Of a stretch of 64,000 nucleotides of DNA, positions 17,106-58,436 are shown piece by piece; the stretch's first letter is position 1, and every line of letters begins with the position of its first letter. This DNA comes from Octopus sinensis (Eukaryota), in NCBI RefSeq assembly GCF_006345805.1, contig NC_043005.1, positions 89,528,001 through 89,592,000 of the forward strand, read 5' to 3'. The notes beneath the pieces are model-generated. The model was not told the origin of the DNA. It searched no databases and worked only from the letters and a program-made list of their open reading frames with translations. The position numbers and the translations under genes are program-made.

Positions 17106-17189
17106 GCTTCGATGGATCTACCTCCTGACAAAGCCAAAGTACTCAAAGGTTACGACGATGAGAAAAAATGGGACCTTATCTGTGATCAG
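17106..17189 (+). CDS. FMNL: Formin-like (FMNL/FRL) internal exon, GTPase-binding region: [28 protein letters not shown]
   Basis: Polypyrimidine tract + ttcag acceptor ending 17105; 84 nt (28 codons); CAG|gtaatt donor at 17190. Peptide matches the FMNL motif M[DN]LPPDKAxxLxxYDxEKKW[DE]LICDQ. Confidence 0.95.
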
Positions 17190-39692: not shown

Positions 39693-40851
39693 TCATCCTC
39701 ATTTAACGTCCGCTTTCCATGGTAGCATGGGTTGGACGGTTCAACTGGAGTCTGGGGAGCCCGAAGGCTGCACCAGGCCAGTCAGATCTGGCAGTGTTTC
39801 TACAGCTGGATGCCCTTCCTAACGCCAACCACTCCGAGAGTGTAGTGGGTGATTTTATGTGCCACCGACACAGGTGCCAGACGAGGCTGGCGAACGGCCA
39901 CGCTCGGATGGTGTTTTTTGCTTGTTACGTGCCCACAGCACGGAGGCCAGTCGATGCGGTACTGGCTACGGCCACGTTCGGATGGTTTTCTTGTGTGCCA
40001 CCGGCACTGGTACCACAAAGATACAAATTCCATTGATGTTCATCTATTTTGATTTGGTTTGATTTTCACTTGCCTCAACAGGTCTTCACAACTGTCACAC
40101 ACTTGCCTCAACAGGTCTTCACAAGTGTCACATACTTGCCTCAACAGGTCTTCACAAGTGTCATAAGAAGGAAGGTATGCACAGGTGGACTGACTACGTC
40201 CCAGGTAGGGGCCACGGGTTATGGCCTGACTAGTCTTGCCGGGTCTTTGGATGGTGTTTTTATGTGCCACCAACACAGGTGCCAGATGAGGCTGGCGAAC
40301 GGCCACGATCGGATGGTGTTTGTTACGTGCCCACAGCACGGAGGCCAGTCGATGTGGTACTGGCTACCGCCATGTTCGGATGGTTTTCTTGTGTGCCACC
40401 GGCATTGGTACCACAAAGATACAAATTCCATTGATGTTCATCTATTTTGATTTGTTTTGATTTGATTTGATTATGATTATTATTATTATTATTATTATTA
40501 ATTATCACTTGCCTCAACAGGCCTTCACAAGTGTCATTTGATTTGATTAGCACTTGCCTCAACAGGTCTTCACAAGTGTCATAAGAAGGAAGGTATGCAC
40601 AGGTGGACTGACTACGTCCCAGGAAAGGGCCACGGGCTATGGTCTGACTAGTCTTGCCGGGTCTTCGGACAGGTGCCAGATGAGGCTGGCGAACGGCCAC
40701 GATCGGATGGCGTTTGTTATGTGCCCACAGCACGGAGGCCAGTCGATGCGGTACTGGCTACAGCCACGTTCGGATGGTTTTCTTGTGTGCCACCGGCACT
40801 GGTACCACAGAGATACAGATTCCATTGATGTTCATCTATTTTGATTTGTTT

Positions 40852-40855
<4 letters not shown>
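39693..40855 (-). mobile_element. Young family C/RTE 3' end with triplicated UTR segment
   Basis: Three near-identical ~185-bp units starting ~39869, ~40276, ~40669, plus 33-bp subrepeats cacttgcctcaacaggtcttcacaagtgtcata. Confidence 0.85.
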
Positions 40856-41075: not shown

Positions 41076-41239
41076 TCTGACTTCGGACAAAATATATATA
41101 TATGTATGGATTGAAAAGTTGTTTTCTGATATAGTGTGAGTGATTTTCAATTTAAATAAAATTTCAAAGACCTTTTTAGAATTTCAGCTTTTTTCCTTAA
41201 AATTGTTTTTTTAAAAATATTTTCTTTCTTATTTTCCAG

Positions 41240-41341
41240 GAACGAGTCCATGCTAAAGATCCCCCTAATGTCTACCTTAACAAACTCCGAACTTACTTGG
41301 ATCCACGTGCCAGTCGGAATCACAGAGTTCGAACACTATAT
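41240..41341 (+). CDS. FMNL: FMNL next exon: [29 protein letters not shown](VRTLY)
   Basis: tttctttcttattttccag acceptor ending 41239; in frame with the 17106-17189 exon (ICDQ|ERV); matches the FMNL/FRL KxPPxxYxxKLxxYLDP motif. gtaagt donor at 41342; alternative in-frame GT at 41327. Not in the ORF track. Confidence 0.93.
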
Positions 41342-41545
41342 GTAAGTAGTTTAAAAACCTATCAAAGTTGCATCAAAAATGGTGGACTTTTCTTTTTCCA
41401 GGAAAAAGGTTCAAAATGCATATTTTCTAATCATTTACAACTGAAAACCTGGATAGGGTTCCCAACATATTAATTACTCTTGTTTGATTACAAACACAGC
41501 AAAATTGTTGATCTCATTGAGAAATCTCTGAAGGAATCTCTGAGT

Positions 41546-41811
41546 CAGTTGTTCTCAACTGGGGTCCATATAAGATTTTTGGGATTCCATACAAGCAAAA
41601 TATTGAATTAGGGACCCACAATAGAATATTAAGAGTCCATGAAAAAAATTTTGTTTTAGATGTATTCATTGCAAGAAACAGGTTTTAAATTTGTGAAAAT
41701 CAAAATAGGAATTTTGAAAGAAGTATCTATAAAACAGGTTTTTAAACGACAGATAGTAATCAAAGACGGTCCAGAGGTAAAGAAAAAAAAAAAAAAGGTT
41801 GAAAACCACTA
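41546..41811. mobile_element. hAT (Charlie-like) MITE; related partial copy ~42915-43090
   Basis: Termini CAGTTGTTCTCAAC / GTTGAAAACCACTA; degenerate 8-bp flanks ctctgagt / ctcaaaat. Confidence 0.65.
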
Positions 41812-42283
41812 CTCAAAATGATTGGTTTATTTTGTTAGAAATAATAATCAAATCTTCCTCAGATCACATCCTGTCGGCTTCAGAAACAGAAGGGCGCGTG
41901 AGATAGTGTAACCTTACGTACATTATCTGAATGAAAGATAAAATGATTATGACCAGAATGCCTTTAATCACAGGTCCACTGGATCAGAACTGACTTTGGG
42001 TTAAAAAAACAACTTCCATTTCCACCTTCACAATATGAATGCATTAAAAAGCTGGTTTTCTCTTTTACTGATACAACTATTATGCCTTGTCTTACTGTGA
42101 ACTTTGCTAACTCTGTGTTATCTCCATCTAAACCTATTTATTACATTCCTCTTTCTTGTTCTCATAATCTTCTCTGACTCGTGTTTATCATCTCACAATA
42201 GTCACCCTAACTCTCTCTCTCTCTCTCTCATGTCATTTCTCCAAACATACTAATATTCAACAATCCATATAAACCTTTTTGTA

Positions 42284-42436
42284 TTTTCTCTCCCTGTTTC
42301 TTTCTGTGTTCCTTTCTGTTGAAGAGCATAGGCTCGAAATGTAAAAGACTTTCTCACTTCTCGAACGTTAAACTAATACATCTGTTGTTTACACACCCAT
42401 CTTCGTCTTTTGCATTTTTGTAAATTCTCACCATAT
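42284..42436 (+). mobile_element. Penelope-like terminal-repeat family with a variant hammerhead fold
   Basis: CTTT-CTGTTGA-A-GAGC-atag-GCTC-GAAA-TGTA-AAAG at 42312-42347; homologous to 40883-41075 in opposite orientation. Confidence 0.6.
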
Positions 42437-43099
42437 AAAATGTTGGTTTTCTAATTTCTATCAACCTCTAATCAAAGATCAGGAGCATATTCCCTTCCTC
42501 CAGCACAATTTTATTATATGAAATAAAAGACTATGGATGCTGTATATCTTTTAATTGTTGTTTTCCAGTTGGATTCCATATTCAGTGTGTGTCTCCATCA
42601 TTTGCTAATGTGCAACAATTCAAACTGCCTAAAACCTCTCTGTCCTTCTAATTCTCAGGTCTCATGATGAGAACTGACTGAGTTGTTTGGAAGAAACTTG
42701 TTGCTATTTAGCTCCCGGTCAGACCTCACTGGGCAAACCTTTGATAAATGTTTTAGGCCTTCCTCTTTAAAGCTGCTACAATGTAATTTGAGAGAGATTA
42801 AACTGCTAGTTCTAGTAGGTCAAGCATACCTGTTCCCTTATTGGCTTGTAAGATGTAGTGTGTTGAGGCTAAGTGTAACTACTTGATCCCCTCTAAACCA
42901 GCAAGGGGACACATCACTGGGTGGCCTCAACTGGAGCCCATATGGCCCTTGGGGGTCCATATCAGATTTTGTTGTTAAAATTTATCTCTGATAAATTGCT
43001 TATACTTCTAAAAAAAAAATATTTAAAGAATTTTTTTAATACAATTTCTGATAATATTTAATTATAAAAATACGTTAGGGTCTTTTCAACATTGATGCT

Positions 43100-43245
43100 G
43101 GTACATTATTTACATTTGATGGATATTTGTCCTCATCTTGTTTGTTGTTAACACATTTCGGCTGATATACCCTCCAGCCTTCATCAGGTGTCTTGGGGAA
43201 ATTTCAAACCAGGGTTCTCATTCCTAAGGTATTTTTCTATTATTA
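43100..43245 (-). mobile_element. Penelope-like terminal-repeat fragment with a type I hammerhead motif (partial sister copy ~22680-22770)
   Basis: Minus strand GACAC-CTGATGA-A-GGCTG-gagggtatat-CAGCC-GAAA-T-GTGTT at ~43149-43192. Confidence 0.7.
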
Positions 43246-44299
43246 TTATACTACCAAGAATCGAACTCAGTCTCACATTCATGAGCTGAATACTCTAACC
43301 ATCAACCCACATGTTTTATTTTCTGTCTCCACTTTGTCTAAGCTTTAACTGACAAATAACCGAATTAAACAAGGGGAAAATAATTGTTTCCTTGAAAGTG
43401 GTATTTCCTTTCCATAGATTCCTTATCTCTTCTCATTTCCCCCATAATCTGTTTTAATCTCTTCTAATTCCATCCTATCCCTGCTGTTCTAATTACACAC
43501 AGCCGTCTTGTTGTTGTTGCAAAGAGTTTTATGTTTCTCTCTCTCTCCGTCTCTTTCTCCCCTTTTTATTGTTTGTTTGTTTTTCATTGTTTTTCTCCTC
43601 TATAATTTAATGTTATCAAATTTTGTTACATCACAGCATGGCTGTGTGGTTAAGGAACTTGGTTGCAACCTTGTTTTGGGTTCAGTTCCACTGCATGGCA
43701 CCTTGGGCAGGTGTCTTCTTCTTTAGCCCCTGAGCCAGCCAAAGCCTTAGAAATGAATTTGATACACAGAAACTGTTTAGTAGTCTGTTTTGTGTGTATA
43801 ATATGTGTTTGTCTCCCATTCTCCATCTGACAACTAGTGTTGGTTTGTTTATGTCCTTGTATTTTAATAGTTCAACAAAAGTGACTGATAGAATTGATAG
43901 AATAAGTACTAAACTAAAACCAAAAAAAACCCATAAATCTTGGTGTTGATTTGTTTGACTAAAACCTCCAAGGTGGTGCCCCAGCCTGGCCAGGGTCCAG
44001 GGTACTGGATAATTATAGATTTGGAGTTTCCTACTTTGTGATTGTGTGTTCTTCAGAACCAGCAGGACATTCTCAGTGCAGTCTCTTGACTCTTGACGCC
44101 ATCACTTCCAGAATTTCTCTTCACTCAAGAGTAAAAAGTGATGTGATTCTTCATCTGTATCTTTGACTGTGTGGTTCTTCAAGTGATTCAGACCATTTAT
44201 GACTGCCCATGTGGATCTGTGTAGGGTTGTGTGTACGGATATATGTGCACGAGTATGTATGTGTATATGCACACAAACACACACACACACACATTAAAA

Positions 44300-44840
44300 T
44301 TGCAGCTGTGGCAGATACCGGTGTCATTTAAATGGCACTTGTGCTGGTGGAATGTAAAAGCATCCATTACACACTTGGAATGGTTGGTGTTAGGAAGAAC
44401 ATCCAGCCATAGAAAACCATGCCAAATTAGACTGGGGTCTGGTGGAGTGCTTCAGGTTGCCAGTCCTGGTCAAACCATCCAACCCATGCCAGCATGGACA
44501 ATGGACACTAAATGATGAGGATACACATGCACCCGCATGTGCGGACACACACACACACCATTTAATGTCCATTTTCCATGCTGGCATGGGTTGGCTGGTT
44601 TGACAGGAGCTGGCAAGGCTGGAGAGCTGCACCAGGCTCCAATTATCTGTTTTGGCACTGTTTCTACAGCTGGATGCCCTTCCTGATGCAAACCATTTTA
44701 CAGAGTGGACTGGGTGCTTTCTATGTGGTTCCAGCATGGAAACTCTATATGTGGCACCAGCCCAGATGCTTCTTACATGGTGCCAGCATGGGTGCTTTTC
44801 AGGTGACACCAGCATGGGGGCTTTTTACATGGCATCTGCA
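44300..44840. repeat. Tail-to-tail inverted pair of family C elements
   Basis: + copy ends ~44518 (ccatgccagcatgg...aaatgatga); - copy starts ~44558 (catttaatgtcc...ccatgctggcatgg). Confidence 0.85.
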
Positions 44841-45217
44841 CGTGTGTGTGTGTGTATATGTGTGTATCCACATACATTTATTTATCCTGTACTTGGTGGC
44901 ACATAATGTGCACATTTCCACTCAAAACCTTATTTAAAAAATATTGCCCTGAGACCTATATGTGAAGTTGCTTTAAATATTATATACTTTACTGCTTTAA
45001 AGACTTTGTTCCTGAATATGTGCTGCCGAAATTGGGGTGCGCCTAATATGGTGGCCATGCATCTTTTATGCCATTAAAAACACGATGTAATACATATGTG
45101 TGTGTGTGTGTGTTTATATAGTTTTGTTTAACGTGTATTTTTCCTAGCTAACATAGCCTAGACAGGAGGTAATTGAAGCAAGATTTTTACGCCTAGATGC
45201 TCTTCCTCTCCGTCTTT

Positions 45218-45266
<49 letters not shown>

Positions 45267-46959
45267 ATAGACGTGTGTGTGTTTATTGATAGTCTGGTCC
45301 TGACTGTTTTAGCAAAAATGGTGGGTATTTTCTATTTGCCATGTAAGTTGTTCCCATTACATGTTGGTGACATAAGTTATTTCTTTACTGTAGAATGAAA
45401 CCCCTTCTTGCATTGTCTTCCCTCTTTCCCCCTCCTTATTCACTCTTTGCTCTAATTATACAAATTGTTTCTGTTTCTCACTGTCTGCTCTTCTCCATTT
45501 CAAAGCATCAGTGTTTCCAACTCGTGTGATGTATTTAACTCTTTTGATCCCAACCTGTCCGAGACCACTTCATGCTCCATGATACTGACTCCCTTTTTTT
45601 TAAACACTATATAAATTAAAACTGTCAGAATTATATTTTATGTTCCAAACACCAGTTTAATAATGACCAAGTTATTTTACTAAATTCTACATTATTTTCA
45701 AAATGAATTTTAACAGAAATATGGTAACCAAATGTTGAACTTGATGTGAATGAGGGTAGATCGACATAATTGGTTGGGAATTGAATAAAATATCGTGCTT
45801 TTTAGTTAGGTCTTCTAATACTCTAATTTTGATCTTAGCAGAGTTGGCTTTTGTCTTTCATCCTTTCCTAGCCATGAAAATAAAGTACAAGTGAGGTACT
45901 GGGTCAATATGTTTAGCTCCTCCAAATTTGGGTAGTTTTATGTCTTTGCTAGAAATCCTACATTTTTGTTTTATTTAATTTTAAGCATTATGTCATTACC
46001 CCTTCTCCACCTAAAAGCCCACACCCTGAATATTTTAAGAATGAAACCTCATAGCTGTAGGGAAGCATGTGCTGCGATGTTCATGCCTTCCCTAAAGGAG
46101 TTAACGACTAATCTGAAGTGGTTCCAAGTGGTGTCATTAACACAGACGAATGAAATTTTTCATAGCCAGAACTATTGGATTGCCATGAGTGTACAAGTGG
46201 CTACGTGTCTGTGTGTGTATACGAGAAAGATAGTATAGTGTCATGTATGTGACTCATTTTTAAAACTAGTAGTCATTCTTCTGAATTGGCTGGTTAATTA
46301 TTTACTGCTGTATCAAGTAGTGTCCCGCAGTAAATGTCTGGGATAGGCTATCCAATTGGTGTCACAGAATCTAAAAACAACAGCAAATATAATTAGAATT
46401 TAAAAGATAGTATTGGTAATTTCTAATTTAGACTCATGTGTTTATAGAATCTCTTAAATATTTGTAACAACAACTGTATTGTTGTGTTGTAATATTTTTG
46501 GTAAAGATAGGGACAGTCACACTTTCTTATCTTCTCCCTCTGAGGCACCATGCTCTTGATGAAAGCTGTTAATGCGGTTGTCTAAAAAAAAATGTGTTGC
46601 TGCAATAGAAGGAAAAATCATTAACTCTTAGTTTTGATAATTAAAATAACATTTGTTACAAATATTGGATTATTAAATATTCATGTAAATGTCAGAATTG
46701 GTCGGTTGTTGGACAAATATGCATTGCAAGTATTTAGCTTTCTATTCTGCATTCAAATCTTGCTGTTGCTCACTGGTTTCGTTTCCAACATTGATAAAAC
46801 AGCAGGCAAAATATTTTGGGGAATCAACTCTAGTCATTCCCACCAAAATATGGAACCAATATTAGACATGGCTGTTGTTATTGTAGCAAGAAATCTTGAA
46901 CTAAATGGTTGTTCTTGTAATGGTAAAGCCACTAATGTACCCACATCTACTTGCAGTGG

Positions 46960-47320
46960 CATTCACCTGGGGTGGATTCAGCTTGCTCCAGCCGAGTTCA
47001 CCACATCCATCATGAATGCTGACCACATCTGATTGCCAGCCACAGTTGAGACTGGAATGGACACCCTCTCCCAGTTCCACTGATGAAGACTATAGTCATG
47101 GGGCCTAAGTTGTTCATCTCTGACAGCCTTTACTGTTACCAACCACCTCTTCAGTTGTCCTCCAGCTTGTTTGTGTCAACCTGGGAGGGGAGCTGGGTTA
47201 GCCATCTTGCAAATGAATTTCCCCGGAGGCTGATGGAGAGTATGGCCAAGCCATCTTGGATCTCTTTTGAGTAGAGCTTGATGCAGCAGCAGCGTTGTCC
47301 TATTTCAGGGTTCAAAATGA
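46960..47320 (-). mobile_element. RTE-clade LINE 3' ORF fragment (second family)
   Basis: Minus strand RWLGHTLHQP...GGQLKRWLVTVK, like the RTE C-terminal RWLGHVLR...GGQxKTW motif. Confidence 0.65.
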
Positions 47321-50065
47321 AGGCACTAATGTGATAAGAATTATAAAGTCCTCAACTAGATGGTTGTTATTGATAAAGTAGCGATGTTGTTCTTGTTATT
47401 GTTGAAGTAATGATGTGGCAAGAATTATGAAGTGTCACTGTATTTAGTTTTGCCCCATTTCCTTTTCGGTTCAGATTCTGTTGAGCCTTTTTTGCTTTCA
47501 TCATTCCTGTGTTGATCAAATAAGTGAAGACATATACAGGCATCAACTCAACTGACTGGCTCCCAACCCTTGTCCACAAATATTTCTCACTCTGCAGCAA
47601 AGTTAGTAATTATATATAAGAAACCCTTAATTTTTGTTGTTTTTATTGATATTGTGTTTCACCCTTCCAGGGTCCAATAAAACCAGATTAGTCAAATCTG
47701 GGGTTGGTTTAATTTTTGGTAGAACCCTTTCCCCAGATTTTCTCATGTACCTTTGTTAGAAACCATTATTATTTTATTAAGTTTTATAAACTTCATTTCT
47801 GGCATTAATCCATCCAGGCTTTTAATTTTGAATGATGCGTTTCATTGTCGACTAATGACACGACTGACTGACTTGTTGTATTTGAATGACTACCAAAGGG
47901 CTACAGACAGTGTGCAGTGAAAATATTCCTCTCAGAAGCCACTATAAAGACAGCTTTGTAATGTTGGGTTATATACCTAAGGTGTATATAGTACATAGTT
48001 TATATATGAGATGGAAATAAAACCACAGTTTCAATTCAGGAGAACATATTTAGCTTAAAACAGGACGTTCAATCATAAAGTGTTGCTTTATGTAAATGTT
48101 TTTGATTGCATTTACACTTTGAATTGGCACAGGCAACAGGTAGGAAATGTCTTGTGTTCATGCTGGTTACTTTTTGTGTCAGCATTATGGTTGATGAAAT
48201 AATTACTAATGATACAGGCTCAGGCATGGTTGTATGGTCAGAAGTTTGCTTCTCAACCGCATGGTTCTGGGCAAGTGTCTTCTACTATAGCCTTGTGAGT
48301 GGAATTGGTACATGGAAACTGAAAGCCTATCGTATGTATGTCTCTGTGTCCATGTCTGTCCCCTACTAGTGTTGGTGTGTATGTCAGTAGCTTAATGGTT
48401 TGGCAAAAGAGACCAACAGAATAAATACTGGGCTTAAAAAATAAGCTCTGAGGTTGATTTAGCTAAATGCTCTTCAAGGCAGTGCCCCAGCATGGCCACT
48501 AATGACTGAAGCAAGTAAAAGCTATAAAGATAATGTACAAGATTTAAGCAAGTATCTACTCCATCTTTTATTATCACTGTCTCCTCTTTCTGCTGTAACA
48601 GCCTCTGCTCCTCAGAGTTGGTTGCTCTCATGCTACCAAACTCAGACATTCCTGACCCTCTTGTCTTTCTGATCATATCACTTTTAACCTCCCCCCCAGA
48701 CACCTCATCAATCACTCTGCCCTGTCTTTCTTTCTCAGAATATCAATCCTCTGAGCTTCCTCCTAATTCATGTCAGATGTTGACTTACAAAAGTTCAAGA
48801 GGTATAATATTCTTTTCTACTCTAGGCACAAGGCTTGAAATTTTTGGGGATGGGGCCGGTCGATAAGATCAACCTCAGTACGCAACTGGTACTTAATTTA
48901 TCGACCCTAAAAAGATGAAAGGCAAAGTCAACCTTAGCGGAATTTGAACTCAGAACATAGCAGTGTGCGAAATACCGCCAAGCATTTTTTCCGGCATGTT
49001 AATGTTTCCGCCAGCTCGCTGCCTTACAAGAGGAATAGTATTACTCTAGGAATGTTAATGGCATCAATCTCACTGGCTTTAGAGGGACTGCAAAGGCCAT
49101 GAACAGAACACCTTCCTTCAGATCCAACTAGGAAATAAAATAAAACTGAAATTCTCTCATATATTCGACATTTGTGAAAGTTTGTCTACCATATAGAGAT
49201 GATTAATGTAAATAACTGATTTAATTACCAAGAATATGGTAGAACGAAATCAATAATACAATAATACTTACAATGGTTACAGCTCTCTGGGTTTACTAGT
49301 ATGGCATCCAACTGTAGGAACCTTGCCAGATCTGATTGGAGCCTGGTACAGCCTTCTGGCTTGCCAGTCCTTAGTCAAACTGTCCAACCCATGCCAACAT
49401 GGAAAGCAGACGTTGAACAATGATGATGATTGTATTGATATAGCGAGTCACTATACTCGGCAAGCTTCCATCCAAGACCTACTCAGTTAAATCCATCAGA
49501 AGTTTTATTGGGTTCTTTTCCTGTTTTCATTGACCTTTCTGTGGACAAGGGTGTTGTGGTCATACGATTTCAGTCTAAATATTTGTTCCTCTTGCCAAAT
49601 CCTTTGCTTCTCCTGTGTATCACATCTGATGCACAGGACATATTTCCCTGGCATCCATTTATTATATATGATACACACTTTCAATTTATTTCAACTATCA
49701 GAGTAACTCGGGACTTATGAAAGAAAATCTTTATATTACTTAGAAACATTTGAAACCAGGGCTAACCGAAAGTCTGAAAACAAACATGGATATTTAAGGC
49801 AAACTTAGGAAAATACTTTGGACATATAAATGGATTAAGATTAGAGAAACTGTTTATCAATCTATCTTGGCTTGATCTTTACTAATCCACCATCAAAAAT
49901 TGTGATGTTATTTCATTACACTAATATCATTCATTGATGTTTTTCTTTTATGTGGCTAAAAATTAAATAAATAAATAAAAAAATGCCTTGTTGTTTGTGT
50001 GTGTGCTGGTGTCTATGTTAGCTTTGGTCATTTGCCTTTGCGAACTGTTTCATTGCAGCCAATAG

Positions 50066-50083
50066 TTTACCTGGATCTTCCAG
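50066..50083 (+). CDS. FMNL: Candidate 18-nt phase-0 FMNL microexon (FTWIFQ)
   Basis: aatag|TTTACCTGGATCTTCCAG|gtatgt; TGC motifs upstream; TGCATG at 50273; non-repetitive context. A competing AG at 50057-50058 would give a frameshifting 25-nt exon. Confidence 0.45.
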
Positions 50084-53000
50084 GTATGTGCATCTGGTTA
50101 CTGGTCAGTAGACTGTTGATGGGATTGCTGCTGTTCTGCTTCTGGGTTACAACCCAGCTTCTTGTTGTTCGCGTAAACTTCAACATTCTGGTAGGTGCTC
50201 AATCCAGTCCTGCGTAGTCACTAAGTCCTCTCCCCTAATCCAGTTGTTTGTGTAGAGCCATCACAGTGTTTTTGCATGACCCCACCTCTTGTTTCTCTCT
50301 CTTCGTTGCTGTGACATTTTACAAATAAAAACTTCAAAAAATATTGAGCTTGCATTTTGTAATATTTAGGATCTCTCTCTTTCTCTCCTCTTCCCTCTCT
50401 ATCTCTCTCTTTTTCTCTGTCTCTGCCCTGTTTGTGTCTGGTGGTGTTGTGTGTATTTACTTGTTTTTAATAAACATACAATTTAACCCCAATGTGATAA
50501 GTAAACAAAATGACCACACCATGGATGTCATCTCTCTGTGGACAGAAAAAGGGATCAGACTGACTAGTTTCTAGTGCTTTTAGACCTTCCTCAGGGAACC
50601 AATAAACCATTGTCAGTGTATGGAAGAATTAATAGGTTTCTGTAGCTCTTATATGCAATTTCAGACTCATAAAATATGTGGTGTATGCATTTTGTCTATT
50701 TTTTCACTGCAAAGTGTTTATTTAGAAATAAATATTTCAAATTATCAAAACCCTGGTGTATATTAGGAATGATTGAATGCACTCACACCTGCAACCACGC
50801 AAGCATGTGTGGTTGTGATGCTACATTCTTTGAATACCTGGTGTATCATTTGATAAGCTCTCTCTCCATTAATTCAGCCAGATTTGGGGTTTGTAGTAGC
50901 ATCATTGGTTGAATAGAATCTTGAGTAAATAGATCTGTTAATCATTAACTCATTAGTGATAGGGAATGTCAGGAACAGTAATTAAAACAAACTTCTTTTA
51001 TTAGCTTCAGTCACCAGACTGTGGCCATGGATGTAAACACAACACCTGTTGCCAAGCAGTGGTGGGACACACACATGCACACACGATGGGCTTCTTTGAA
51101 TTTCTCTTTGCCAAATTCAATTGTAAAGCTTTGGTTGTCCCAAGGTGCCATACAGTGGGATTGAATCTGGAACCATGTGGTTGGGATTTTATCAACAATT
51201 TGCAGTGGGAAAACCTTGGAATACAAATGATTGGTTGAGAAATCAATAAATAACAAGGCATTGATTGTAATTTTTCTGAGTTCCTGAAGACAATCTGATT
51301 TCTCCACAAGGGATTTCTTGGTTTGGTCTTCTTTGATTGTTTACTTTTTATGAATTTGCAAATGTCTATGGAATATCTTCAAGGAGGCAAGGCGATTGAT
51401 TCTGCATTTGGGGTTAAATAAATGGTGTAACATGGTGGGGTAGGGTGGAATCTTGAGGCAAGCCAAATTTGACATGCACCGAAGAATATTGAGACCATGA
51501 AATTCTGTCCAAGGATAACATCCAGCCTGAGACTGTAGGAACAGGCTGTGGCAGATGTTGGTACATTTTTAGCCTCTTAGATGCCAGCTTCTCATATTCC
51601 TAACTCTGCTTCTGACTGGTTTAAGGACTAAAACATTCTGCTAAAACTGTCAGTGCCTCCACTGTTGACTAAAGATTTCATTGATTGATTGTTAATAACA
51701 ATGAATGTTGAAAACACAATGGGTGTTCCAATGAGACTGAAAATGTAAAAGTTCACCAACCGATCATGGCTGTTGCCAGCCTACCCTGGCACCTGTGCTG
51801 GTGGCACCTAAAAAGCACCATCCGTATGTGGCTGATGCCAGCGCTGCTTTAACTGGCTTCCGTGCCAGTAGCATGTAAAAAGCACTAACCGATCGTGGCC
51901 ATTGCCAGCCTTTCCTGGCACGTAAAAAGCACCAACTACACTCACGGAGTGGTTGGCGTTAGGAAGGGCATCCAGCTGTAAAAGCACTGCCAGATCTGAC
52001 TGGAGCCTGGTGCAGCCTCCTGGCTTCCCAGACCCTGGTCGAACTGTCCAACCCATGCTAGCATGGAAAACGGATGTTGATGATGATGAGATTGTATCAG
52101 GACCTAGTTTATAATGAGACCTCGTTTGGTTTATAATCTGATTTACACACCTGAGGAAAATGTTTCCTTTTTGAAAATTCTTGCAAGATATGACATTTGT
52201 TGCTAGAATTGCCCCCTCCTCAACTACAATAACAATAACAGATCTGTGTACTAATGTATTTATTCAATGACTGATGCTACAATTGTATGTTGAGTTAAAA
52301 TGAGAGAGAGAGAGAGAGAGAGAGCATTTGCTCATAATGTGATCCGTCAATTATTAAAGAGAGAGAGAGAGGGAGAGTGTGTAATCTCCCTTCCCCCATA
52401 TACATGTAGAACCTTTGTCTCTTGTTTTTGCAGTGTATTTTGGTCCCTAATGTATATATTTTTACGGTAGCTTAGTTCTTGCAGGATTTGGTTTGTTCAT
52501 TCAATATCTTAGTGGTTTTCTCCATATCTTCCAAATAACCCATTCTCTCAACATCTAACAACTTACTCTGAATATAACAAAATGGTTTTATAATAATTTG
52601 TGTTTTTTTCATTAGCATATTACATGGTCACATGATGCGTCTAAATAAATGTCTTAATTTGATGCGAATTTCTTCTCAGACCTACAATAGTTGACTCTAA
52701 ATTAATTTCTCTGCTGAAAAGAACTTTGTTTAATCTGACCAATTTACAATAATCATTTCATACTTTCAGGTGTAGTTCAGTTATACAGGTGACAAAAATG
52801 GTAGTTTTGCATTGTTTTTCTCTTTATGAATATTCTTAACTGTATGTGATGCTTGTAAGGATGAAGTTAAACTGAAAAGGGGAGGTTAGGAGGTGGGGTT
52901 AATTCAGTTCATTCAAAGCTTGAAGAGTTTGTGTTTTTAGCAGGAAACAAGGAATTGAAGCTGAGTAGTGAATCAGTCATCAGACTGGAAAATTGGTGTT

Positions 53001-54835: not shown

Positions 54836-56192
54836 CGAGGGGCGTTCAATAAGTAATGCCCCTGACCCACTTCCCATAGCAGTAGAGCAACGAAACTTTG
54901 CACAGTTATTAGTCTTTCTCTACATAGGAACCACCCAGAGTTACTCATTTCTCCCATCGTTTGATGCAGCTCTGGAGACCGTATTTTTTAGAAGACCCAG
55001 CTTGGTCCTCCAACCACGACGTGACTTCAGAAATCAAGGCTGCATCATCTGGGAAACGCTTTCCTTTCAAAAACAACTTCATGGCTGGAAAGAGGTGAAA
55101 ATCAGAGGGTGCAAGGTCAGGAGAGTAGGGGAGATGGGGGAGGAGTTCATAGCCGCACGCCTGTGCTTCTGATCTGGCGACAAGCGAGTTGTGGACCGGA
55201 GCGTTGTCCTGCAGGAGGAGGATGTCTTTGCTGATCTTGCCCCGCCTCTTGATTTTGATAGTTTCTCTTAATTTCCTCAAAAGTGAAGCATAATAGGCTC
55301 CTGTAATTGTGGTACCCTTTGCCAAGAAATCTGTTATCAATACTCCGTCCTGGTCCCAGAAGACTGTGAGCATGACCTTGCCAGTGGAGGGCTCACCCTT
55401 GCCTTCTTTGGAGGAGGTGAGTCACGGTGCTTCCATTGCATTGACTGGGCTTTGGTCTCTGGATCATAGTGATGGACCCAGGTTTCATCCTGTGTAATCA
55501 GTCTTTTGAAAAATTTTGACTCATCTTCAAATGGCGGTGCCCCAGCATGGCCACAGCTCATGAGCTGAAACTAGAATCAATCAATCAATCTTCTTGGCAC
55601 ATCTCCAAATTCCTCCTCGAGCACTCGACGCGTTCTTGCTTCTGGAAAGGTGTGAGCAACCTGGGAATCCATCTGGCAGACACCTTTTGCATATGCAAAT
55701 GGTCATGAATAGTTTCCACAGACCCGGTACTAATCTTGACCTCGTGGGCTATTTGGCGAATAGTTATGCGCCGATCTTCCAAAATGGCAGCCTCAACTTG
55801 ACAGACAGATACCTCATCAATTGCAGAAGGGGGGGGGCGACCAGATCTGGGAGCTGTTTCCACCGAGTTCCGACCATGTTTGAATTCACGATGCCAGCGT
55901 TTTACAAGGTCATATGATGGGGCATCATTACCATAAGTTACTTTCATTTCATCAAAAGTCTCTCGTGGTGTGCGTCCTTTCATATACAAAAACCAGATCA
56001 CTGCTCGACACTCAACAGGCTCCATTTCACACTTGACTCAGTTCAAACACCTGTAAATCAGAAACCCCAATTAGTTCAGAGCTGTAATTTACCACCTACT
56101 CTATAGAGATATAAATAATTGCACACGCAAAATTTCAGCTAGATCAAACAGCGGCAAGTGGGTCAGGGGCATTACTTATTGAATGCCCCTCG
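54836..56192 (-). mobile_element. Second copy of the same mariner family, interrupted by a short retroposed insert
   Basis: Same 37-bp TIRs (one mismatch in the right TIR), TA TSDs. ORFs 55585-56025 and 54945-55373 with WIPRLL, DNAPVH and YSPDLAPSDFHLF; QDETWVHHYDPE in ORF 55337-55561. Confidence 0.96.
55529..55587 (+). mobile_element. 59-bp 5'-truncated SINE/LINE 3' end inserted in the mariner
   Basis: Absent from the 15554-16790 copy; flanked by ATCTTC duplication (55523-55528, 55588-55593); GGTGCCCCAGCATGGCC matches the SINE family A tail; ends in (ATCA)n. Confidence 0.9.
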
Positions 56193-57882: not shown

Positions 57883-58281
57883 GTTATTCAGAACTAACAG
57901 CACCCATTTTGAATCTTTCATATACATTTCAAACAACACTACATGAGAGTTATATTCCTTAGCTATGAGTTTTAAGGCTCGAAGACTTTAATTTAGAGGT
58001 TCTCTTAGCTATTGTTTTTAAGATAGAAGTTTTTGTCATCTCTGGTTTCATGTAGCTAGCCTTCAGGCATGTATTGTGTCGTTATTCCAGAACTAACAGC
58101 CACCCATTTTGAATCTTTCATATACATTTCAAACAACACTACATGAGAGTTATATTCCTTAGCTATGAGTTTTAAGGCTCGAAGACTTTAATTTAGAGGT
58201 TCTCTTAGCTATTGTTTTTAAGATAGAAGTTTATGTCATCTCTGGTTTCATGTAGCTATCCTTCAGGCAGTTTATTGTGTC
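57883..58281. repeat. ~198-bp tandem duplication (2 copies)
   Basis: 57883-58080 repeated at 58081-58281 with a few 1-bp indels and substitutions. Confidence 0.95.
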
Positions 58282-58297
58282 CTTGTAATTATCAAAG

Positions 58298-58436
58298 TTT
58301 ATGGGAATGAGTAAGCCATCAAGGTGAGAAATACTGACAAGAGAATGTCTAGTATGAGGAAGGGCTTTTATGGGAATGAGTAAGCCATCAAGGTGAGAAA
58401 TACTGACAAGAGAATGTCTAGTATGAGGAAGGGCTT
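58298..58436. repeat. Perfect 69-bp tandem duplication
   Basis: tttatgggaatgagtaagcc...tgaggaagggct repeated with period 69. Confidence 0.95.

Follow-up and report, generated by a model that had tools for sequence, protein, structure and literature searches.

A microexon-like splice-signal pair, probably unused, in a 27.7-kb FMNL intron of Octopus sinensis

Is an 18-nt stretch deep within an intron of the octopus formin gene FMNL, which a sequence-only reading had proposed as an ancient neural microexon, used as an exon at all? The window examined here is the whole 64,000-nt stretch of Octopus sinensis DNA that was analysed, and its host gene was confirmed as FMNL. The coding features that define the intron are as follows.

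17106..17189, + strand: upstream FMNL coding exon in the GTPase-binding domain (100% match to residues 39–66 of protein P0001)
41240..41341, + strand: FMNL coding exon preceding the intron; the donor used is at 41341 (contig ends in 4 of 4 runs)
41327..41341, + strand: VRTLY extension, 15 nt beyond the ancestral donor position (from contigs and relatives)

The intron after position 41341 is 27,737 nt long and of phase 0, and the next constitutive exon lies outside the 64-kb window, at L014:5079–5158. In relatives lacking an insert, the junction falls at the equivalent of 41326, and the GT at this ancestral position (after 41326) scores −1.2 bits in the octopus. The VRTLY residues, previously bracketed as optional, turned out to be included in all six runs examined. 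The junction aligns with 93RKKFRRR of FMNL2, that is, with the basic membrane-binding helix beside the Cdc42 site, and the proposal that this position bears on membrane and Cdc42 binding is supported. A scan of the genome with the Pfam Drf_GBD profile gave 15 matches, and the FMNL locus was absent among them. Further downstream, the same gene contains a 45-nt exon that is present in P0001 and missing from P0013; the last seven bases of its acceptor are identical to those of the candidate described below, and a TGC also lies upstream of it.

The candidate and the signals around it were located at the following positions.

49443..50371, + strand: non-repetitive island of the intron, by uniqueness and composition
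50033..50056, + strand: TGC motifs at 50033, 50039 and 50054, the last being part of a TGCAG acceptor
50066..50083, + strand: candidate frame-preserving microexon of 18 nt encoding FTWIFQ (the acceptor scores 0.2 bits and the donor 10.0 bits; 4 of 4 contig sets skip it)
50084..50089, + strand: strong donor-like GTATGT
50273..50278, + strand: TGCATG, an Rbfox-type word 190 nt past the donor, one of eight in the intron
50059..50083, + strand: 25-nt candidate exon using the upstream AG, which scores 4.7 bits as an acceptor (would cause a frameshift with a stop in the next exon; in no contig)
50059..50190, + strand: open frame running on from the upstream AG; donor-like sites follow 50103 and 50190, and exons ending there (45 and 132 nt) would keep the frame; no transcript supports them

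Most of what had been described at this site was reproduced. The AG at 50064–50065, the FTWIFQ codons, the GTATGT from 50084 and the TGCATG at 50273 were all in place, and the distance from exon 41240–41341, given as about 8.7 kb, was measured as 8,724 nt. The surroundings are indeed non-repetitive (49900–50350 matches the genome once, and 49443–50371 has no second copy in 264 kb), and the donor is strong, ranking fourth among the 1673 GT sites of the intron. The competing AG 7 nt upstream (50057–50058) exists and outscores the candidate acceptor, 4.7 versus 0.2 bits. The upstream TGC motifs are present at −12, −27 and −33, but the one at −12 belongs to this rival TGCAG acceptor. TGC occurs in 22% of the 20-nt windows of the intron and precedes 6 of the gene's 25 true acceptors, and TGCATG occurs in 5.7% of its 200-nt windows. 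Every one of the gene's 25 true acceptors (3.6–17.0 bits) outscores the candidate acceptor; the scoring matrices were built from 25 sites each, and the true-site scores are in-sample. None of these 25 acceptors has a second AG within 12 nt upstream. On the upstream side, the closest CTAAT branch-point words are 145 nt (49921) and 184 nt (49882) away, and an AG at 50020 separates them from the candidate. The segment 50040–50289 has 47% G+C (top 7% of windows) and is poor in A (lowest 2%). The candidate ranked 8th of 599 among frame-preserving candidates of ≤30 nt in the intron and 16th of 83 among those of 9–150 nt. Rival candidates in the same intron lie at 42569–42586, 42773–42847, 45313–45342 and 52434–52451. 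RNA folding of the region gave a z-score of −0.30, and the only Rfam match had an E-value of 0.92.

With thresholds that were the candidate's own, set post hoc, 362 kb of control DNA contained the full signature three times (none in 114 kb of antisense sequence, and one and two on the two strands of 124 kb downstream), corresponding to approximately 0.23 signatures per intron length. Simulated introns carried it in 5 of 60 cases. The overall chance expectation is thus about 0.08–0.23 per intron length, which the candidate exceeds, but modestly.

When exon 41240–41341 was used as a query, 24 runs matched, all as contigs and none of them recorded as RNA, and six distinct runs were examined, four at 41150–50400 and four at the next exon. 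At the former, the contigs of all four runs stopped matching at 41341; at the latter, the loose ends in 4 of 4 runs corresponded to 41312–41341, indicating a direct join that skips the candidate. The runs with the direct join came from four studies under three organism labels, and none of the six contig records at the next exon was a side contig carrying the insert. Because the contig sets carry no tissue labels and minor forms drop out of contigs, this skipping counts as weak evidence against inclusion. No contig covered 49802–50110 in four runs, which is uninformative for an 18-nt piece. The FTWIFQ peptide was found in none of 322 stored proteins, of which just two were cephalopod, and no cephalopod FMNL other than P0001 and P0013 appeared among the matches listed (12 of 12; the best 120 of 2088; the best 120 of 214) or in two protein clusters of 10 proteins each. 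Comparison of the island with 79 metagenome loci yielded chance words only, and molluscan inserts were not found in the six of these loci in which they were sought. The listings of our literature search contained no mention of the exon; the octopus long-read annotation (PMC9699675, data S1) or bioRxiv supplements may list it.

The proposal of an ancient exon drew on an insert of the fly protein Frl, and that insert is real: LYLFYFLCQ occurs in 10 stored proteins. However, in both ant-like genomic loci (L061 and L062) the corresponding insert, SYRFLMFFQ, is encoded by the 27 nt that close the intron, preceded by an AG, so that it arises from an alternative acceptor, not a cassette exon. Of 10 insect-like loci, 6 have an AG at −27. 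Every one of the 16 distinct inserts from named insects has Q as its final residue, which would be expected if a pyrimidine tract followed by CAG were translated. Fly inserts probably follow the same acceptor-shift route, judging from their equal length of nine residues, although the shift itself is seen directly in ant-like DNA only. Named molluscs have 14 distinct inserts at this junction, none of which starts with V or ends in Q, K or E; on the basis of these end residues, the snail and bivalve inserts are probably cassette exons, and the intron would therefore be a hot spot for inserts. One 6-residue insert is common to three gastropods. Against all 35 inserts compared, FTWIFQ gave background scores (best rank 48 of 985) and is thus unlike the inserts of other animals, and the other candidates in the intron likewise resembled known inserts only at background level.

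The most probable reading, in our view, is that the 18-nt stretch represents paired cryptic splice signals that go unused within the 27.7-kb intron (probability roughly 0.6). The exon ending at 41341 is joined directly to the next exon in four assemblies; the spliceosome would pass over the site, defining no exon, because the pyrimidine tract is poor, no branch-point word is close and a rival AG intervenes. The likeness of FTWIFQ to the insect insert would then be merely that of another pyrimidine-rich run ending in CAG. Against this stand the rank of the donor, the unique, G+C-rich island, the molluscan insert hot spot, an eMIC-like exon in the octopus genome and the similar acceptor on the gene's own 45-nt exon. 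An unlikely alternative is a lineage-restricted microexon, included in neurons through the eMIC form of Srrm234 together with Rbfox, that would place six mostly aromatic residues in the basic helix beside the Cdc42 site and thereby modulate membrane targeting. Its donor is strong and its island unique, its length falls within the 3–27 nt between AG and GT expected of SRRM3/4 targets, it preserves the frame without a stop, UGC words lie near the acceptor (the nearest within the rival one), TGCATG lies downstream, and a regulator with an eMIC region is encoded in the genome (PF15230 match in L113, 32.6 bits against a cut-off of 27). The match of the junction to FMNL2 93RKKFRRR, the cassette-like molluscan inserts, including the 6-residue gastropod one, and the recurrence of neural exons in the same genes, described as the rule in 10.64898/2026.09.05.749416, agree with such an exon. 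Its skipping in 4 of 4 contig sets and the failure to find a homologous peptide among the inserts tested or the 322 proteins argue against it, as does the better-scoring AG 7 nt upstream, since eMIC targets have long AG-exclusion zones according to PMC8797185. A homologue of the fly insert of bilaterian age, for which the shared junction, the hydrophobic character and the terminal Q had spoken, is largely refuted by the acceptor-shift origin of the ant-like inserts and the matching length of the fly ones, and is extremely improbable. In the fly exon table of PMC8797185, CG32138 has a single entry, a 214-nt exon, and a study of 20 species, an octopus among them, inferred only two exons to be bilaterian-ancestral.

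The upstream AG allows further forms. With the strong donor, it would yield a 25-nt poison exon that shifts the frame, triggers nonsense-mediated decay and lowers FMNL levels in neurons, a rather unlikely reading. Its acceptor is within the range of true sites, its combined sites rank 17th of 184 candidates of 3–159 nt and 4th among those of <52 nt, and its stop falls in the next exon, 14 codons past the donor at 41341 and well ahead of the last junction, with over 20 exons remaining; decay would keep such an mRNA out of contigs, and PMC11188260 describes a neuronal poison exon in mouse Fmnl3. No transcript supports this form, however, and the intron contains higher-scoring site pairs. Distinctly unlikely is a switch between the two acceptors, 7 nt apart, in which the eMIC would favour the 18-nt form in neurons and the 25-nt form would destroy the mRNA; if true, it would bring aromatic residues into the FMNL basic membrane-binding helix in neurons and be a fourth route to lengthening this helix. 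Very unlikely is a longer in-frame cassette that would start at the upstream AG and end at the donor following 50103 or 50190, hydrophobic and cysteine-bearing like the 16–22-residue inserts of scallops, mussels, limpets and sea hares. Both frames are open, both donors score about 6 bits, and only four pairs of this kind, these two included, exist in the intron under the thresholds used; however, alignment to the molluscan inserts was no better than background, T/G-rich DNA is free of stops in any case, the segment encloses the stronger donor at 50083, and no contig covers it.

If the candidate is unused, it is of little importance; should it be real, it would add a further lineage-specific neural exon to a formin family already known for such exons and offer a cephalopod test case for eMIC regulation. 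A firmer conclusion is that the FMNL basic membrane-binding helix has been lengthened at one junction by different routes across animals: a donor shift in the octopus, an acceptor shift in ants and, judging from end residues, probably cassette exons in other molluscs. These routes make the effect of hydrophobic inserts beside this basic patch on membrane and Cdc42 recruitment testable.

Among known systems, the insect FMNL/Frl insert shares the junction, the aromatic character and the final Q with the candidate, but in ant-like loci it stems from an acceptor lying 27 nt ahead of the next exon, whereas in the octopus gene the 52 nt next to that exon's acceptor are free of AG. Gastropod and bivalve inserts lie in the same intron, are probably cassettes and include one of six residues, but their sequences are unlike FTWIFQ, and their genomic form is deduced from end residues. 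The candidate resembles SRRM3/4 microexons in length, frame, strong donor and weak acceptor with a nearby UGC (weak acceptors with UGC typify SRRM3/4 targets; 10.1101/2024.09.17.613571), and the genome contains an eMIC-like exon; it differs in lacking a long AG-exclusion zone (AGs at 50057 and 50020), a strong pyrimidine tract and a near branch point. The mouse Fmnl3 cassette, also a frame-breaking FMNL exon, has the effect that the 25-nt form would have, but is PTBP1-repressed and validated (PMC11188260), whereas the octopus form is a prediction. Vertebrate formins have the neural exons FMNL1-A, described as adjoining the GTPase-binding domain, FMNL2-A and DAAM1-MIC (PMC12056172). These belong to the same family as the octopus gene but are measured events, whereas the candidate is a prediction. 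FMNL1-A presumably lies in a later loop than this junction. The mouse Fmnl1 neural exon MmuEX0019388, as given in PMC8797185 (table S2), is 18 nt long, exactly the length of the octopus candidate.

The window corresponds to G000:C9:89528001–89592000. The exon at 41240–41341 matches formin-like proteins, as the sequence-only reading had proposed, and is 100% identical to the Octopus bimaculoides model P0001; the gene is therefore an octopus FMNL gene. Mapping P0001 onto the window and the 200 kb past it gave the exon chain, in which the following constitutive exon lies past the window end (L014:5079–5158) and the intervening intron is 27,737 nt long and of phase 0. Tandem arrays occur in the FMNL introns at 39848–40855 and 57883–58436 of the window, with periods of 394 (2.5 copies), 200, and 69 (2 copies each). 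Near-equal Pfam Drf_GBD matches, with three stops inside each, were also found on two different contigs (L002 and L003; G000:C2502 and C12622).

The sequence at 50057–50089 is as previously described: an AG at 50064–50065, 18 nt encoding FTWIFQ, and GTATGT, with a competing AG at 50057–50058 and a TGCATG at 50273. The surrounding island, reported as non-repetitive, is indeed unique in the genome; it is G+C-rich and A-poor and showed no notable RNA fold or RNA family match. Splice sites were scored with matrices derived from the 25 acceptor and 25 donor sites of this same gene, a small set that gives in-sample scores. On this scale the donor is strong, as claimed (10.0 bits, rank 4 among the 1673 GT sites of the intron), and the acceptor of the 18-nt form scores 0.2 bits, lower than all 25 true acceptors (3.6–17.0). 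The upstream AG, which would produce a 25-nt form, scores 4.7 bits; a second AG within 12 nt upstream occurs at none of the 25 true acceptors, and of two close AGs, the first usually wins. The candidate ranked 8th of 599 frame-preserving pairs of ≤30 nt and 16th of 83 pairs of 9–150 nt. TGC occurs in 22% of 20-nt windows and precedes 6 of the 25 true acceptors, the copy closest to the candidate belonging to the rival TGCAG acceptor, and TGCATG occurs in 5.7% of 200-nt windows.

A signature that demands an upstream TGC and scores at least as high as those of the candidate, with thresholds set after the fact, occurred twice in the FMNL intron (the candidate and one 3-nt case). Across the 114 kb of the gene body it occurred three times in sense and never in antisense; 124 kb of downstream sequence had one and two cases, and 5 of 60 simulated introns contained it. 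Under these post hoc thresholds, about 0.08–0.23 signatures per intron length are expected by chance. The intron holds six further candidates for small exons that keep the frame and score equally or better (42569–42586, 42773–42847, 45313–45342, 52434–52451, 55360–55416, and 64292–64327, the last past the window end), none with transcript support.

Six of the 24 listed sequencing runs were compared. In each of X15, X1, X6, and X11 the contig match extends to 41341, which shows that the distal donor is in use, and VRTLY (41327–41341), previously thought optional, was included in 6/6 runs. The ancestral donor position before VRTLY scores -1.2 bits; the octopus gene has shifted its donor 15 nt downstream. 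Contigs that cover the following exon continue upstream, in 4/4 runs from four studies (X6, X11, X9, and X16; organism labels A, A, C, and D), as an end identical to 41312–41341, and the candidate was therefore skipped in these. It was absent from all six contig records compared there; X1 and X15 were read only at the upstream exon. The skipped form with VRTLY thus exists and dominates in the samples read, which is not proof of the candidate's absence because contigs drop minor forms and the runs carry no tissue labels.

The junction was readable by pattern in 205 of 322 stored proteins (two of the 322 cephalopod); 86 had no insert and the remainder had 36 distinct inserts. FTWIFQ occurred in none of the 322. 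The fly insert named in the earlier reading, LYLFYFLCQ, does exist, and Q is the last residue in each of the 16 distinct inserts from named insects. Two metagenome loci (L061 and L062) encode the same peptide as the fire-ant proteins P0115 and P0131; in both, SYRFLMFFQ occupies the final 27 nt of the intron, preceded by an AG and abutting the KRK exon (L061:5380–5406 and L062:728–754), with the upstream exon of L061 1.8 kb away. Because of this position, the insert reads as a translated pyrimidine tract plus CAG, gained via an alternative acceptor, a point settled for this one group. An AG at -27 was present in 6 of 10 insect-like loci (L061, L062, L052–L054, and L057; not L039, L055, L056, or L058); such an acceptor, 27 nt ahead of the KRK exon, accounts for the nine-residue inserts with a final Q. 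The fly insert, of equal length and ending, probably arose by the same route; in the fly exon table of PMC8797185, the sole entry for CG32138 is a 214-nt exon. In the octopus gene, the 52 nt next to the corresponding acceptor contain no AG, and FTWIFQ gave only background scores against 35 inserts. Its likeness to the insect insert is probably no more than a pyrimidine-rich stretch with a terminal CAG would show. We therefore rejected the proposal that the microexon is ancient, and homology with the insect insert is highly improbable; the earlier observations stood, as did part of their interpretation.

Named snails, limpets, and bivalves contribute 14 distinct inserts, none of which begins with V or has Q, K, or E as its last residue. 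A simple shift of donor or acceptor therefore cannot account for them; they are probably cassette exons, which makes an octopus cassette in this intron plausible. Several inserts of molluscan FMNL isoforms at this junction span 5–22 residues and are hydrophobic, often cysteine-bearing, and sometimes modular (P0017, P0018, P0293, P0299, P0274, P0224, P0283, P0062, and P0285); IPVPFI (six residues) occurs in three gastropods, alone or joined to a neighbouring piece. Two further octopus exons bear on the candidate:

L113:1501–1635 (G000:C11337), minus strand: exon matching Pfam SRRM_C above the cut-off
Window start + 105563–105607, past the window, in L018: 45-nt exon, in P0001 and missing from P0013, the other O. 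bimaculoides model

The former (PF15230, 32.6 bits) is probably the eMIC region of Srrm234. The latter has a weak acceptor with an upstream TGC and shares its last seven acceptor bases with the candidate; unlike the candidate, it has no rival AG within 25 nt of its acceptor, and it is a better-founded alternative exon of the gene.

All odds given here are our own judgement. We favour an unused splice signal, with a probability of roughly 0.6. That the 18 nt form a real neural microexon is doubtful: the molluscan inserts at the same junction, the eMIC-like exon, and the acceptor resemblance to the 45-nt exon speak for it, but several small-exon candidates of the intron compete with it and it was skipped in every run read at the next exon. 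If included, it would put aromatic residues into a basic helix, and membrane targeting might be affected. In the alignment, the junction corresponds to the first basic helix of human FMNL2 (93RKKFRRR), which belongs to a basic patch of 12 residues that lies next to the Cdc42 site and aids membrane binding (PMC4432619, in the part available); in human FMNL1 it coincides with an insert of 10 residues. Somewhat less likely still is a 25-nt poison exon: joining the better-scoring upstream AG to the donor at 50083 leads to a stop codon in the next exon, and the product would be a predicted decay substrate, similar to the decay-type exon of mouse Fmnl3 described in the available part of PMC11188260. 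The upstream AG can also pair, with the frame kept, with two further donor-like sites, one after 50103 and one after 50190; a longer cassette of this kind is improbable.

Among known neural exons, those of vertebrate FMNL genes have already been described (PMC12056172, available part), and a 20-species study including an octopus inferred, in its accessible text, that only two neural exons are bilaterian-ancestral, with much recurrence (10.64898/2026.09.05.749416). Among the results listed, our literature search found no mention of the candidate exon, which supplementary tables may list. The accessible portions of earlier work characterize eMIC-dependent exons by a long AG-exclusion zone (PMC8797185) and a weak acceptor with UGC (10.1101/2024.09.17.613571). 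The candidate shares their length, donor, and UGC, and the genome holds a probable eMIC region of the regulator, but the AG-exclusion zone is lacking; at best, the candidate resembles an eMIC-type neural microexon, short of established membership.
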